From the NCBI GenBank assembly GCA_016969615.1, contig GCA_016969615.1_4548.1: 38,485 nt of DNA, one strand, 5' to 3'. The position numbers and the translations under genes are program-made. Below are positions 6,899 through 22,285 of this stretch, in pieces (the first letter of the stretch is position 1; each line of letters begins with the position of its first letter). Origin of the DNA: a phage. The notes below the pieces were generated by a model. The model was not told the DNA's origin. It saw only the letters and a program-made list of their open reading frames with translations, and did no database searches.

Positions 6899-7492
6899 TT
6901 ATCTATGACCTGTAGGTGTGCCTTTAGCAGCACTAATCGGTGCAGCACCACCATCACCAGAGCTTGAATTTCCGGCGATAGATTTACCAGCAACATACCC
7001 TTGCATCCCGGCGTTAGCAACATTAAGTGCATGAGCTAGTGGGCTGGTCTTGATGATTTTACCTTGACCACGGATAGCAGACTTGGTGTTCTCAATGTTG
7101 GCGATACGGTTCCCGAATATAGCCGCATAGTCACGGTTGTAGCTTTCGGTAATCCCTGCTCGCCCCTTGACTGTATCTCCTTTGACCTGACGTTCAATCC
7201 TGTCCATAGAGTTACCTTCCAAACCGGACTCAGCTACCGCAGCTCGGACCATACCCTGATTGCGGATACCGTTTAACGTGGTCTCTGTCAGTTCAGCCAT
7301 CTGCTGCTCCTTCAGGTCTCGCTCCTGCATCCTCAGGTTGGCGTCAGAGTAGTTCATCTGCTTAACCATCTCCTGAGCCTGACGGTTCTGAGCGTCGATA
7401 GCAGCACCCTCAGCTTTGGCCTGACTAGAAGCGGACATAGCGGCACCAGCTACAGCCATAATACCCATGCCGATACTTACTGGCTCGCACAT
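6899..7492 (-). CDS. gp14: Internal virion protein B
   Basis: 197 aa (T7 gp14 196 aa); starts MC..., hydrophobic N-terminus; position between gp13 and gp15. Confidence 0.8.
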   Translation of the reverse strand: MCEPVSIGMGIMAVAGAAMSASSQAKAEGAAIDAQNRQAQEMVKQMNYSDANLRMQERDLKEQQMAELTETTLNGIRNQGMVRAAVAESGLEGNSMDRIERQVKGDTVKGRAGITESYNRDYAAIFGNRIANIENTKSAIRGQGKIIKTSPLAHALNVANAGMQGYVAGKSIAGNSSSGDGGAAPISAAKGTPTGHR

Positions 7493-7947
7493 ACGTCCTC
7501 CTTAGAGATAGTGAATAGTTGAAAACGCTCACCAGTTACTGGGCTTACAGTCCAATCATCATGGAATTTAGCGCCAAGCAACTTCAAGAATTTAATGTGA
7601 GACTTATTGCCTGACCACACGTAGTTCCAGATGGTCCCGTATTGGTCTAACATTAAGTCCCTGTACTCAGAGATACGCTTTATGAACTCTCGCTTCTCTT
7701 TAGGTCTCAGCTTATAGACCAGACCCGAAGTCAAGAACCATACGTTATCCCCTTGGTTTCCACCATAGGCAAACACTTCACCTACACCGTTCGTTAAAAC
7801 CACAGATGATGGAGATAGGTGCTTAAGCAGTCTCTCAGAGAGACCCACGGTTGACCCGTAGTTTGCTTTGCATTCATTAACATCATCTGCTGAAAGATGC
7901 CACAGAAAGTAGTGGACATCTGGTTCCGTAGCCTTGCGAATATACAT
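7477..7947 (-). CDS. gp13: Internal virion protein A (assigned by position)
   Basis: 156 aa ORF after a phage promoter, RBS AAGGAG; position equals T7 gene 13; sequence similarity not verified. Confidence 0.6.
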   Translation of the reverse strand: MYIRKATEPDVHYFLWHLSADDVNECKANYGSTVGLSERLLKHLSPSSVVLTNGVGEVFAYGGNQGDNVWFLTSGLVYKLRPKEKREFIKRISEYRDLMLDQYGTIWNYVWSGNKSHIKFLKLLGAKFHDDWTVSPVTGERFQLFTISKEDVCASQ

Positions 7948-16486: not shown

Positions 16487-16504
16487 CCTATAGTGATAGT
16501 TTAG
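16487..16504 (-). promoter_or_regulatory. Phage RNA polymerase promoter core upstream of gene 6.5
   Basis: minus CTAAACTATCACTATAGGGAC. Confidence 0.85.
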
Positions 16505-16557: not shown

Positions 16558-16650
16558 TCAGTGTTTAGGACGGTTGTTCGACCCGAACCACTTATACATG
16601 CAGTAAAGGGCCAGAAGTCCGGCCCAGTAAATCACATGGATGGTGTCCAT
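16558..16650 (-). CDS. Candidate 30-aa membrane micro-protein (gene 6.3 position)
   Basis: AAGGAGG then 7 nt then ATG; MDTIHVIYWAGLLALYCMYKWFGSNNRPKH; overlaps the last codons of gp6. Confidence 0.35.
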   Translation of the reverse strand: MDTIHVIYWAGLLALYCMYKWFGSNNRPKH

Positions 16651-17501
16651 AGGATGACCTCCTTGGACTTAGGGTCGTAGTCGGAGGCTCTGCAAATACG
16701 AGCGACCTGAGCTTGGACCAGAAGTTCCTCCTCGGTCATCCCAGCTTTAGCAGCCAGAGTCACCATGCAGTCCCACAGCGTCATATCGTCACGCTTTGGA
16801 TACTTCTTCCACTCAGTCTTAATCTGGCCTTTGTTCTTACCAGTCTTAAGCTCACGGCTCTCCTGCACGAAGTAGTACGGCTCGTCAAGGAACGCACGAG
16901 TGGTATCCTCACCCATCCCCGGAATGCCACCGTAGCCATCTGTAGTGTCACCCTTGATGGTTTGCTCCATGTGCCAGTAGTCCGCCTCAGCAGTCGTATG
17001 ACTCAGGATTTCACCAGTGGTTAACCAGAAGAACTCACAGTTCGGGATGGTCTTGAAGTCCTTATCACATGACACCAGCACAGCATGGTCACAACCAACA
17101 ATCTGAGGTCGGGTCCCGATGATACCCATACAGTCATCACCCTCAAGCGTAGGACGGAGGAAGCTGTTGAACCGTGGGTCAGCCATCACTTCGGCTACGA
17201 ACTTCTTGTAACCTACAGGCTTGCGAGAACCTTTACGGTTAGCCTTATAGGTAGGCAGAACGTCCTTACGCCAGTTGTAATCGTCGGTGAAACACATCAC
17301 AATCTTAGCGTCTTTCCACGCCTTGCGCTTCTTAACGATTTCAGAGATGGTGTTCTCAAGTATACGATGAGCCTTCTCGTGGTCGCAGATAAGGGTCCAG
17401 ATGTCATCACCCCAGTCTGTCTCATCCTCGGCAGCAGCCATAGAAGAATAGACCAGATAGTCGCCATCCAGCACCAGAGCAATCTTCTTATTCGAAGTCA
17501 T
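16632..17501 (-). CDS. gp6: 5'-3' exonuclease
   Basis: motifs shared with T7 gp6 (CDHEKA..ILE, KANRK, KPVGY, LEGDD.MG, SCDKDFKTIPNC, TIKGD.TDGY.GI.G, WDC...AKAGMTEE); likely start ATG 17501 after AAGGAGG (track ORF begins at GTG 17582). Confidence 0.9.
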   Translation of the reverse strand: MTSNKKIALVLDGDYLVYSSMAAAEDETDWGDDIWTLICDHEKAHRILENTISEIVKKRKAWKDAKIVMCFTDDYNWRKDVLPTYKANRKGSRKPVGYKKFVAEVMADPRFNSFLRPTLEGDDCMGIIGTRPQIVGCDHAVLVSCDKDFKTIPNCEFFWLTTGEILSHTTAEADYWHMEQTIKGDTTDGYGGIPGMGEDTTRAFLDEPYYFVQESRELKTGKNKGQIKTEWKKYPKRDDMTLWDCMVTLAAKAGMTEEELLVQAQVARICRASDYDPKSKEVILWTPSM

Positions 17502-17626
17502 TCTTTCACCTCCTTGTTGCATTTGAGACACCACCAGTATGAGCTGCCAGCATATCCCTCCAACATAGGATGTTGTCCACACTTTTTACACTTTAACCTA
17601 GATGCAAATAAACCTTTCAGGCTCAT
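17498..17626 (-). CDS. Small zinc-ribbon protein (gene 5.9 position)
   Basis: 42 aa MSLKGLFASRLKCKKCGQHPMLEGYAGSSYWWCLKCNKEVKE with CxxC...CxxC; ATGA overlaps with gp5.7 stop and gp6 start; does not resemble T7 gp5.9 as I recall it. Confidence 0.5.
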   Translation of the reverse strand: MSLKGLFASRLKCKKCGQHPMLEGYAGSSYWWCLKCNKEVKE

Positions 17627-17832
17627 AGACAGCCTCCGTGTTGGTTCAGGAACTTGGTGCCAGCAGCGGTAATCTCCCACGCACCGTTGTTACGCCCATC
17701 CATAGACAGGCAGCTTAGATGTCCACGACTCGCAGCCTCAGCCACAAGTGCAGCGTTGTTGCGCACATAGTTGGACTGGAAGGTCTTCGGGCAGGACTTA
17801 AGTGCCGCTAGGACCCGTAAGTATTCACTCAT
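17623..17832 (-). CDS. gp5.7: gp5.7-like small protein
   Basis: 69 aa; MSEYLRVLAALKSCPKTFQSNYVRNNAALVAEAASRGHLSCL...GRNNGAWEITAAGTKFL matches my recollection of T7 gp5.7; ATGA overlap with gp5.5 stop. Confidence 0.75.
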   Translation of the reverse strand: MSEYLRVLAALKSCPKTFQSNYVRNNAALVAEAASRGHLSCLSMDGRNNGAWEITAAGTKFLNQHGGCL

Positions 17833-18101
17833 TGCTTGAACCTCGCGCTGATATTGTAGACCCCTTGCAACTCGTCTTTCAGTTGGGACGCCAGAATAGA
17901 CTTCAGGTGCAGCTCAATGGCAGCTTCGACCCCATGCTCTACAGCAGTCTCTACCAGCTTCCGTGCCATACCATCCAGCTTCTCACCGGAGACATAACAC
18001 TTGGTCAGCTTCACCAGCTCAATAGCGTATGACTCTACGTCCTCAGACGTAAAGACGATCTTCATGTCAAACTTACAGGTAAGGCGTTTAGTAATAGCCA
18101 T
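17829..18101 (-). CDS. gp5.5: gp5.5-like protein
   Basis: ATG at 18101 overlaps gp5 stop (TAATG) after GGAAGGAG; MAITKRLTCKFDMKIVF resembles T7 gp5.5 N-terminus; track ORF begins at upstream alternative start. Confidence 0.6.
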   Translation of the reverse strand: MAITKRLTCKFDMKIVFTSEDVESYAIELVKLTKCYVSGEKLDGMARKLVETAVEHGVEAAIELHLKSILASQLKDELQGVYNISARFKQ

Positions 18102-20272
18102 TAGTGACACTCCTTCCACGTTGGTCCAATCTTACCTTCGGTATCAAGGACACATTTAAAGTTATAGAACTCACCCACCTTACGCATAGCAAGTTGAGCA
18201 ATCTTGACGACTTCTTCGGCAATCTCCTGAGTACGACACGCAATCTGTAGCTCATCGTGAACCCAAGCCATGTACGCGAAGTCTCCTTCCCAGCCGTGGA
18301 CATACCCGGCCTCTTCGAGCATACGCTCGGTCTCGACAATCCAGTGCTTACATACTACAGCACCATCACCCTGAAGTAGTGCGTTAAGTGCTGAGTGTGG
18401 CGACCGGATGTGAATGCGGCGACCATCCAGACCTTTAAGCCAGCGACGTTTCCACTTCACGATGTTCTCACCATCTACCCACTTCGACTCTGAGATGAGC
18501 GTGTTCTGCACAGCCTCTCGCAGGTCCTTGATAGCTGGTGTACCCTCAATGAATTTCTTCATCAGGGCCGCACCTTCCTTCTTACCACCGCCAACTATCA
18601 GTCCAATCTTAGCGGCCCCCGCACCATACAGGAACGCATAGATGAACGTCTTGGCGTTATTACGGAAAGCATCGTGGTCATGGCTCGACTTGTCGCGTGG
18701 GACGTTAGGTGCTAACCCAGCGTTGACTGCGTTGGCCCAGTGGATGTCACCTTCGACCACAGTCTTCGCATAGTCGCCACCATCAAACGGAGCAGCTCGG
18801 TTTCCCAGACAACGAAGCTCAAGACCAGAAGCATCCACGCCCACTTGAATCCAAGGGTCTGGCTTACCGTCCTTCTTGTTCCACGCTGCACCGAAAGCAC
18901 CACGGCAAGTCTCACCATACGGAGCACCGTTAGCCGGGACCTGAGCCATGTTTGGAGAACTATGTGTCGCACGTCCGGTTACTGCTCCACAAGGGTTGAT
19001 TGAACCGTGCATACGTCCGTCTGGACCTACAAGTTTCAACCATGCGTTCTTACCTTCAGCCGCCTGACCGATGCGCTTCTGGACCACCAGATACTCACGG
19101 ACCAGCTCTACGCAAGCCTGAGCCTCTGCGTCTGGTAACTTAACGTGTTCTAACGTCTCGTCATCGACTACAGGTTTCCCGGTGTCAGTGAAGTCCACAG
19201 GCTCCCAGCCACGCTCCATCAGGACTTTCGCTAAGTGGTCTCCGCTTCCCGGATTAAACTCAACGTAAGTGATTGGCGTGAATGGTGCTCCTTCCATCGT
19301 GTCACGCGTATCGCGTTCACAAGGTTCAAGACCTAAGCGTTGAGCTTTGTTCTTCGGCTTCTTAAAGATGCCACCGACCTTAGGATACACGACTCTAGGA
19401 TACTTCGGAAGGTCCTTACCTGTCCGTGGATGTCTGAAGAACTCCTTGCCTCCCTTCGGTGCATACCAGCTACCGAAAGTCGAGCGCAGCTTGTCCAGCA
19501 ACTCCGCACGCTTGACGGTGAGTTCACGATATAAGCCTTCGACCATCTCGGTGTTCATCGGATAGCCGTTACGTTCCATCTTCGCACAGGTCCACGCAGC
19601 ATCATGTTCCAGACGCAACGCATAAATCTGGTCGAAAGCAAACTGTTCAGACTGGAAGTAATACTTGTCAGTCAGGAACTTCTTGAACAACGCCAGTGTT
19701 ACCACAACGTCCTGAACGTTATAGTCCAGCATCTCCTGAGATGGGAACAACCATTCGTCCCCAGACTTATATTCGATACCTTCGTCCTTGCACTTGGCAA
19801 CGTAATCGTGTTTGTACTCACCCTTCATTTCACCGAGACGATAGCCCCAAGCCTCAAGAGACTGACGGCCCATCATATTAGGTGGCAGGCGTCCAGCTTT
19901 CACAGCACCCATGTCTGAGAACTTAATGTTGGGATACATCAAGCGACCCAACACCAAGGTATCAATCATCTTGTGTTTCGGGAAGTTAAAGCGTTTCCCG
20001 AAGTACAAACGCTTCAGCTTGTCGATAGCTGGGATGTCATAGTTGATACCGTTATGGAAGACCAGCATACCCGTAGGCGTTGCAGCAATTTCTTCCACCT
20101 TCTGTACATACTCTTTGAAGCCACCGACGATACCGACCATCGGCGCTGCCCCATACTTAAGGGTCTCATTCGACTCGGCATTAATCAGGACCCCACAATG
20201 GAACTGGGACACGGTGTCAAGGAGACCGTTTGTCTCGATGTCCGAACCCCAAATATCCTTAAGGTCAAACAT
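18101..20272 (-). CDS. gp5: DNA polymerase
   Basis: 723 aa; N-terminus MFDLKDIWGSDIETNGLLD and many blocks align with T7 gp5; no sign of an intron or intein. Confidence 0.95.
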   Translation of the reverse strand: MFDLKDIWGSDIETNGLLDTVSQFHCGVLINAESNETLKYGAAPMVGIVGGFKEYVQKVEEIAATPTGMLVFHNGINYDIPAIDKLKRLYFGKRFNFPKHKMIDTLVLGRLMYPNIKFSDMGAVKAGRLPPNMMGRQSLEAWGYRLGEMKGEYKHDYVAKCKDEGIEYKSGDEWLFPSQEMLDYNVQDVVVTLALFKKFLTDKYYFQSEQFAFDQIYALRLEHDAAWTCAKMERNGYPMNTEMVEGLYRELTVKRAELLDKLRSTFGSWYAPKGGKEFFRHPRTGKDLPKYPRVVYPKVGGIFKKPKNKAQRLGLEPCERDTRDTMEGAPFTPITYVEFNPGSGDHLAKVLMERGWEPVDFTDTGKPVVDDETLEHVKLPDAEAQACVELVREYLVVQKRIGQAAEGKNAWLKLVGPDGRMHGSINPCGAVTGRATHSSPNMAQVPANGAPYGETCRGAFGAAWNKKDGKPDPWIQVGVDASGLELRCLGNRAAPFDGGDYAKTVVEGDIHWANAVNAGLAPNVPRDKSSHDHDAFRNNAKTFIYAFLYGAGAAKIGLIVGGGKKEGAALMKKFIEGTPAIKDLREAVQNTLISESKWVDGENIVKWKRRWLKGLDGRRIHIRSPHSALNALLQGDGAVVCKHWIVETERMLEEAGYVHGWEGDFAYMAWVHDELQIACRTQEIAEEVVKIAQLAMRKVGEFYNFKCVLDTEGKIGPTWKECH

Positions 20273-22267: not shown

Positions 22268-22285
22268 CCTAAGGTGATAGTTTAG
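22268..22285 (-). promoter_or_regulatory. Variant phage promoter upstream of gene 4
   Basis: minus CTAAACTATCACCTTAGG, two mismatches to the core (CACTATAGG to CACCTTAGG); contains the stop of the upstream small gene. Confidence 0.55.

Follow-up and report, generated by a model that had tools for sequence, protein, structure and literature searches.

T7 gene 5.9 lies between genes 5.7 and 6, and in the K1F-like T7-group phage (Kayfunavirus) studied here the equivalent position is taken by a short ORF for a predicted zinc-ribbon protein (here called the ribbon). Does this micro-protein stand in for the RecBCD inhibitor gp5.9, and if not, what kind of gene is it and how is it placed there? We analyzed the whole 38,485-nt stretch of phage DNA that carries it (the window), in which every gene is on the minus strand. 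A megablast search with positions 16600-18200 matched 227 phage records; most are Kayfunavirus, and identities are 90-97%. The ribbon is part of a chain of genes in the order DNA polymerase, gp5.5-like, gp5.7, ribbon, and gp6 exonuclease, all overlapping by 1-4 nt:

18101-20272, minus strand: DNA polymerase, the first gene of the overlapping chain
17829-18101, minus strand: gene 5.5-like (H-NS inhibitor family; phrog_1452, E 6e-19, match from residue 7 of the listed ORF)
17623-17832, minus strand: gene 5.7 homologue, 69 aa (phrog_1334, E 7e-39), at the same position as T7 gene 5.7
17498-17626, minus strand: ribbon ORF, 42 codons plus TGA, a basic C4 zinc-ribbon micro-protein (predicted)
16632-17501, minus strand: gene 6 5'-3' exonuclease, 289 aa (phrog_107, E 6e-79; Pfam 5_3_exonuc_N, 35.4 bits)

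The 5.5-like gene overlaps the polymerase stop through TAATG. The ribbon ATG (17626-17624) shares ATGA with the TGA of the gp5.7 homologue, and the ribbon TGA (17500-17498) shares ATGA with the gp6 ATG (17501-17499). The initial annotation had described a 42-aa CxxC...CxxC protein coupled by ATGA overlaps to both gp5.7 and gp6, and both parts of that description are borne out: translation of 17498-17626 on the minus strand gives MSLKGLFASRLKCKKCGQHPMLEGYAGSSYWWCLKCNKEVKE, followed by the stop TGA, with the Cys spacing C13-x2-C16-x16-C33-x2-C36. Tryptic peptides of the ribbon include GLFASR and CGQHPMLEGYAGSSYWWCLK. A promoter scan found 12 K1F-type promoters on the minus strand of the window, none of them beside the ribbon ORF; the closest on that strand lie at 16487, past gene 6, and at 22268.

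Comparison of 14 homologous copies (57-100% identity) shows that the ribbon ORF codes for a real protein and evolves under purifying selection, because its frame and residues are conserved, its third codon positions vary freely, and dN/dS is below 1. All 14 copies keep the frame, the four Cys (C13, C16, C33, and C36, in two CxxC knuckles), and the YWWC motif (residues 30-33; Y30-W31-W32 and the third Cys), and P20, G27, K35, E39, and V40 are also invariant. Every homologue has the same start, ATG or GTG, directly at the stop of the upstream gene; a 60-aa GTG-initiated version (17498-17680) was discarded as unsupported. Among the copies, pS ranged from 0.4 to 0.97 and pN from 0.03 to 0.33 (Nei-Gojobori), and dN/dS was 0.07-0.36 for ribbon pairs wherever dS was unsaturated, synonymous sites being near saturation. 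A chance ORF or antisense artifact, which the very short ORF and its omission from several GenBank annotations that miss the gene (TM1, 216Ecol046PP, Dev2, Ninurta, and Citrof5) might suggest, is a negligible prospect and already effectively refuted by what the comparative data indicate, namely a conserved frame and length, a dN/dS well below 1, and a good Shine-Dalgarno sequence, along with annotation of the ribbon as a CDS in other GenBank records and no Rfam family in the region. In T7-like phages a single strand carries all the genes; the plus-strand ORF at 17085-17672 lies antisense to the gene 5.7/ribbon/gene 6 stretch.

AF2 modeling on the family alignment (mean pLDDT, 73) placed a short helix (residues 4-9) and three strands (21-25, 28-33, and 38-40) around the two knuckles, and the best structural matches of the ribbon were zinc ribbons. 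The fold is predicted to be a C4 zinc ribbon, and zinc binding is likewise a prediction. Foldseek against viral models returned one significant match, the family member from phage PHB19. Searched against PDB sequences, the family profile gave nothing below E 0.1, and no Pfam, NCBIfam, PHROG, or PADLOC model reached its threshold. Only sub-threshold matches to generic zinc ribbons were seen: Zn_ribbon_IS1595 (PF12760) scored at best 18.2 bits, in P0003 only (cut-off, 25.4), and Lar_restr_allev (PF14354) scored at best 15.6 bits, in P0007 only (gathering threshold, 28.6), with no match in the window protein. Likewise, no family match assigned a nuclease, recombinase, or other enzyme domain to the 42 residues, as a homing endonuclease or self-mobile gene would call for. 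The family is named only "hypothetical" or "uncharacterized" in every source, and literature searches on Kayfunavirus and zinc or on accessory hotspots of T7-like phages found nothing on the ribbon protein.

The family is also rare. By tblastn against 50,697 phage records, 32 records matched (E<=2e-7, about 60-100% identity, 40-43 codons) with one copy per genome, and no second copy was found in the window. Among 5.8 billion proteins there were 7 ribbon clusters, and exhaustive HMMER screening of 1.84 billion representatives yielded 4 family representatives plus borderline multi-ribbon proteins. IMG/VR contributed 3 loci and JGI metagenomes 4; the 185,579 species genomes of bacteria and archaea contributed none. 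Two candidates, P0008 and P0010, were set aside as apparent low-complexity or repeat artifacts sharing YWWC. Wherever the context of a 40- to 46-residue member was recovered, it was either a phage of the T7-like Autographiviridae or a contig bearing T7-like genes. Together, the searches place the ribbon in a very small orphan family, recovered only from lytic T7-like (Autographiviridae) phages of Enterobacterales.

Within these phages, the ribbon gene occupies at least three unrelated gene junctions in different genera. In the first context, it follows 5.7 or 5.9 and precedes gene 6, either directly or with one further ORF in between; this arrangement occurs in Kayfunavirus (the window, TM1, and 216Ecol046PP), Ningirsuvirus, Berlinvirus, Przondovirus, the unclassified Studiervirinae phage PHB19, and its close relative PGX1. 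In the second, seen in Kayfunaviruses Dev2, SH5, EclP_26, and ESh23, it lies between the genes for internal virion proteins gp13 and gp14. In the third, in Klebsiella Molineuxvirinae, its neighbors are a dATP/dGTP-pyrophosphohydrolase-like gene on one side and, on the other, a 64-aa ORF located upstream of DNA ligase.

Most Kayfunaviruses, including most close relatives of the window phage, lack the ribbon. A 371-nt query spanning the 5.7/6 junction matched 527 records, of which only TM1 and 216Ecol046PP align across the ribbon ORF (95.7% nucleotide identity). Some other Kayfunaviruses have no insert at this junction, and others have unlike contents: a 72-aa protein in ECG4, a 78-aa acidic protein in ZH4 (similar over its C-terminal half to the gp5.9 of PGX1 and PHB19), a 110-aa acidic protein in Bas105 (related to a 120-aa ORF of Ninurta), a 150-aa acidic protein in ZG49 (related to a 123-aa ORF of Citrof5), and an apparently decayed segment in LS2. 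Because its contents differ so among Kayfunaviruses (nothing, proteins of 72-150 aa, or a decayed segment), the 5.7/6 junction is a hypervariable accessory slot at which accessory genes, gp5.9-like acidic proteins included, are exchanged. It is a good place to seek further accessory or anti-defense genes in these phages.

Does the ribbon fill this slot in place of gp5.9? The initial annotation saw no resemblance to the acidic T7 protein, and the comparison agrees. Recognizable homology was sought by BLASTP and is absent: up to E 100 the ribbon and T7 gp5.9 do not align, and PGX1 gp5.9, the positive control, matches the T7 protein at E 4e-12. T7 gp5.9 is a dimeric parallel coiled coil with a pI of 4.0 that acts as a DNA mimic (PMC9836394), whereas the ribbon is a predicted beta zinc ribbon of opposite charge (pI 9.3, net charge +4.6; family pI, 7.7-9.3) and, being basic, cannot mimic DNA in that way. 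A nonhomologous replacement at this locus was one of the two readings the annotation had offered; the ribbon would then act on RecBCD, or on whatever gp5.9 targets, in a different way. This reading draws on the shared position with T7 gene 5.9, on the window having no gp5.9-like ORF anywhere, and on the acidic proteins that occupy the slot in other Kayfunaviruses, that of ZH4 with its partial match to gp5.9 among them. But the Escherichia phages PGX1 and PHB19 carry both, with an 81%-identical ribbon set after a true gp5.9 homologue and before gene 6, and Ninurta and Citrof5 have other acidic slot proteins downstream of their ribbons. The coexistence with true gp5.9 is decisive against replacement: the ribbon is added to gp5.9-type genes and not swapped for them. 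Moreover, copies occur at loci unrelated to 5.9 (gp13/gp14 and the Molineuxvirinae dNTPase region), and the slot is empty in many Kayfunaviruses. The sequence comparisons hence do not support the ribbon as a stand-in for the RecBCD inhibitor; we consider functional replacement highly improbable and RecBCD inhibition by the ribbon unlikely. The other reading, an unrelated function, is supported by the lack of gp5.9 similarity, the basic charge, and the predicted fold.

Three further features of the window bear on the anatomy of the insertion:

17633-17637, minus strand: GGAGG Shine-Dalgarno of the ribbon, 6 nt upstream of its ATG and inside the 3' end of gene 5.7
17507-17515, minus strand: AAGGAGGTG (AAG GAG GTG), ribbon codons 38-40 (K-E-V), the Shine-Dalgarno for gene 6, with a 7-nt spacer to the ATG at 17501
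7490-7500, minus strand: empty gp13/gp14 junction, GGAGGACGT^ATGTGCGAG, an alternative insertion site that carries the ribbon in Dev2-type Kayfunaviruses

In phages without the insert, the same GGAGG serves gene 6; ASO2B, for example, has GGAGGCTGTCTATGAGTGAA running directly into gene 6. The empty junction of ASO2B reads GGAGGCTGTCT-ATGAGTGAA, against GGAGGCTGTCT, 125 nt, and ATGACTTCG in the window. At gp13/gp14 the roles are reversed: the window reads GGAGGACGT-ATGTGCGAG, and Dev2 has GGAGGACGT, 124 nt, and ATGTGTGAA, the insert sitting exactly between GGAGGACGT and the gp14 ATG. Because the empty sites show this anatomy, the unit is inserted directly 5' of the downstream start codon. In all three contexts it begins with ATGAGC overlapping the upstream stop and ends with AAGGAGGTG-N5-7-ATG of the downstream gene, so that occupied sites have a direct repeat, GGAGG-spacer-ATG(A), on both flanks. 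In AAGGAGGTG, GAG is invariant in the 14 copies from all three contexts and GTG is present in 12 of 14, third positions included. The ribbon is thus a portable plug-in ORF, a unit of about 125 nt that lacks its own promoter and fits exactly between one gene's stop codon and the ATG of the gene that follows.

The ribbon itself borrows the resident ribosome-binding site, and its K-E-V codons together with ATGA give the displaced downstream gene a new ribosome-binding site and a stop/start overlap, which keeps the polar effects of insertion minimal. Recombination between the short stretches of GGAGG-spacer-ATG(A) homology present at every gene start may account for both gain and loss. The cassette has a GC content of 42%, compared to 50% for the window. 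Between the window and Ninurta, pS is 0.40 for the ribbon (only 42 codons) and 0.73 for the adjacent gene 5.7, a low value that would fit later exchange between genera. Between ribbons of the three contexts synonymous sites are saturated, so the moves between contexts are old. Hitchhiking with a neighboring HNH homing endonuclease was rejected: an HNH gene separates the polymerase gene from 5.5 in TM1, PGX1, and L013, but the window has no ORF of such size there.

A unit built in this way could be a neutral or selfish passenger, harmless through the translation signals it restores and conserved in part by the dual coding of ribosome-binding sites. Its most nucleotide-conserved stretches are indeed the ATGAGC start overlap and the AAGGAGGTG Shine-Dalgarno, and its sporadic distribution includes frequent absence with no obvious consequence. 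However, purifying selection acts also on the central Cys, G17, P20, G27, YWWC, and K35, which have no dual-coding role and whose third positions are free, and the 42 residues include no nuclease, integrase, or mobility function to drive selfish spread. Because selection reaches residues outside the dual-coding signals, a pure passenger is unlikely, and we regard the passenger explanation as a whole as very unlikely.

The main rival to a role in host interaction is a trans-acting cofactor of DNA metabolism: a free primase-type zinc domain, or a ribbon binding DNA ends or single-stranded DNA, that would modulate the phage replisome, exonuclease, or recombination and not a host factor. When the ribbon profile was aligned by hhalign with the zinc-binding domain of the phage's own gp4 primase, the probability was 73% and the score 25.6, above all 200 shuffles in which the four Cys were held fixed (mean, 12.0; maximum, 23.4). 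Two distant relatives also tie the ribbon to DNA enzymes. P0012 (123 aa) has a similar N-terminal ribbon (hhalign, 97%) and is ATGA-coupled, in an unrelated phage contig, upstream of a 495-aa primase/helicase-like protein that lacks a Cys-rich N terminus; in P0011 (hhalign, 94%), an RNase_T/DEDDh exonuclease is fused to three CKxCG...GGS(F/Y)WWCSHC ribbons in tandem. In addition, the protein is basic, and most of its gene copies are located among the DNA-metabolism genes. Yet the E-values of P0011 and P0012 are borderline (3e-4 and 7e-4), the ribbon shares 22% identity with the zinc domain of gp4, and zinc ribbons readily match one another. The primase-helicase zinc-binding model PF08273 (Zn_Ribbon_Prim) gave no ribbon match at E<=10; its best match in the phage was the N terminus of gp4 (19.2 bits, E 0.0016, below the 23-bit cut-off). 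It would also be unusual for a cofactor of a core process to occur in just a few percent of related phages, or to be moved into a virion-protein block. The similarities to P0011, P0012, and gp4 are leads, not proof, and we judge the cofactor explanation unlikely.

The reading we prefer for the ribbon as a whole, to which we give about an even chance, is a conserved predicted zinc-ribbon protein encoded by a portable plug-in ORF and serving as a host-interaction or counter-defense accessory, not as a RecBCD-inhibiting DNA mimic of the gp5.9 type. Such a dispensable role is favored because the gene is sporadic, sits in a hotspot, is low in GC, and has moved among several loci. Translational coupling would place its synthesis in the class II (DNA-metabolism) period. 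The protein may then act as a small binding module that modulates or inhibits a nucleic acid-handling factor of the host, or possibly of the phage, and its likely interaction surfaces would be the exposed invariant Tyr-Trp-Trp beside the third Cys and the conserved N-terminal MSLxGL helix. Our best guess is that it interacts with the host as a small module for binding or inhibition. A more specific version, which we hold to be doubtful, is a self-contained coupled plug-in that hops between junctions by Shine-Dalgarno/ATG microhomology recombination and encodes a new micro-inhibitor, directed either at host defense (compare Enki, below) or, as a free primase-type zinc domain, at reprogramming the replisome or a nuclease.

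If a specific target exists, a 42-residue zinc-ribbon inhibitor or adaptor would join the host-interaction toolkit of the T7 group. A minimal ORF that carries the ribosome-binding site of the gene it displaces is also a simple model for how accessory genes can be shuffled in T7-like phages while their tightly coupled operons stay undisturbed, and the same architecture is of practical use as a design by which therapeutic T7-like phages could be given payloads.

Compared with known systems, the ribbon is an uncharacterized member of the small zinc-ribbon accessory proteins of phages. It shares the CxxC-x16-CxxC arrangement and predicted beta-hairpin knuckles with generic C4 zinc ribbons (TFIIS/TFIIB/eIF5/NrdR-type; Zn_ribbon_IS1595, Zn_ribbon_19, and Lar_restr_allev) but has GS(S/Y)YWWC and MSLxGL motifs of its own. 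The gp4 primase-helicase zinc domain (PF08273) comes from the same phage group and has the same Cys spacing class; unlike it, the ribbon is free-standing, diverged in sequence, and invisible to the PF08273 model. With T7 gp5.9 the ribbon has in common its place between 5.7 and 6, a small size (42 versus 52 aa), a tight coupling to gene 6 (through an ATGA overlap, versus a 14-nt overlap for T7 gp5.9), and an apparently dispensable accessory character; it differs in being basic, in lacking sequence similarity, in its predicted zinc-ribbon instead of coiled-coil dimer fold, and in coexisting with gp5.9. Like phage morons, it is sporadic, lower in GC than its neighbors, and set between conserved genes in a hypervariable slot. 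Classic morons have their own promoter and terminator, whereas the ribbon has neither, is translationally coupled, and supplies only the ribosome-binding site of the next gene. Finally, Enki is a 52-aa zinc-ribbon anti-defense protein of an Autolykiviridae phage that inhibits AbiH and a retron (10.1101/2024.06.14.598830). The ribbon comes from a different virus family, and the comparison of roles is one of analogy that implies no homology; as another tiny phage protein with a predicted zinc ribbon, Enki is a precedent that such micro-proteins can neutralize defense systems.

The junction between gene 5.7 and gene 6 in the Kayfunaviruses is, as judged from sequence comparison, a hypervariable slot. 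We compared the window 17498-17640 region with loci L001, L002 and L018-L021, and the content of the slot was as follows.

Content of the gene 5.7/gene 6 slot
Some Kayfunaviruses: empty
Window: 42-aa ribbon
ECG4: 72-aa protein
ZH4: 78-aa acidic protein
Bas105: 110-aa acidic protein
ZG49: 150-aa acidic protein
LS2: apparently decayed segment

The ribbon ORF is left unannotated in the GenBank records of five phages, each of which has a gap of approximately 120 nt separating annotated genes.

Unannotated ribbon ORFs
L016:1501-1629, TM1
L017:1501-1629, 216Ecol046PP
L004:1501-1632, Dev2
L007:1501-1629, Ninurta
L012:1501-1623, Citrof5

In Dickeya phage Ninurta, the ribbon is immediately followed on its 3' side by a 120-aa ORF (L007:1626-1988; start ATGAGCC...) with the encoded N terminus MSHYDCKKCGAYPTCDC. 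The remainder of this ORF is homologous to the 110-aa acidic protein of Bas105, which lacks the N-terminal part. The Ninurta N terminus appears to be what is left of a second ribbon cassette that was truncated and became fused to the next gene.

Two borderline relatives from the profile search carry similar ribbons in other settings. P0012 (123 aa), whose N terminus holds such a ribbon, is encoded on an unrelated phage contig (L029:5001-6859) and is ATGA-coupled to a 495-aa primase/helicase-like protein that lacks a Cys-rich N-terminal zinc domain. PDDEXK nuclease and Rad52-like genes lie upstream of the pair, which may represent a split primase zinc domain. In P0011 (L032:5001-6425), a CKxCG...GGS(F/Y)WWCSHC ribbon is repeated in tandem, three times in all, ahead of an RNase_T/DEDDh exonuclease domain, and the gene adjoins an IS3-type transposase.

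With up to 3 mismatches allowed, the K1F-type phage promoter consensus CTAAACTATCACTATAGG matches the window at 12 places, where chance would give 0.01. The 12 matches all lie on the coding (minus) strand.

K1F-type promoter matches
Window 699, 7981, 12631, 13666, 16487, 22268, 24387, 25255, 27024, 30552, 33343 and 33797, minus strand

For the gp5.5-like ORF, the mechanically listed GTG start at 18119 (start region window 18099-18119, minus strand) is probably wrong, since the PHROG match covers the listed ORF only from residue 7 onward. The polymerase stop is overlapped, as TAATG, by an ATG at 18101 (minus strand).

A tblastn search of the whole window did not find a gp5.9-like or ZH4-like acidic ORF (best E values of 3 to 8), and the phage therefore appears to lack a recognizable RecBCD inhibitor of the T7 type. 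The inhibitor itself appears to be a mosaic when L001:1087-1323, L003:1331-1504 and L006:3360-3518 are compared. T7 gp5.9 has only its first 24 residues in common with the gp5.9 of Escherichia phages PGX1 and PHB19, and the C-terminal half of the latter (HGVDNWCGYDDAV...) matches that of the 78-aa slot protein of ZH4.
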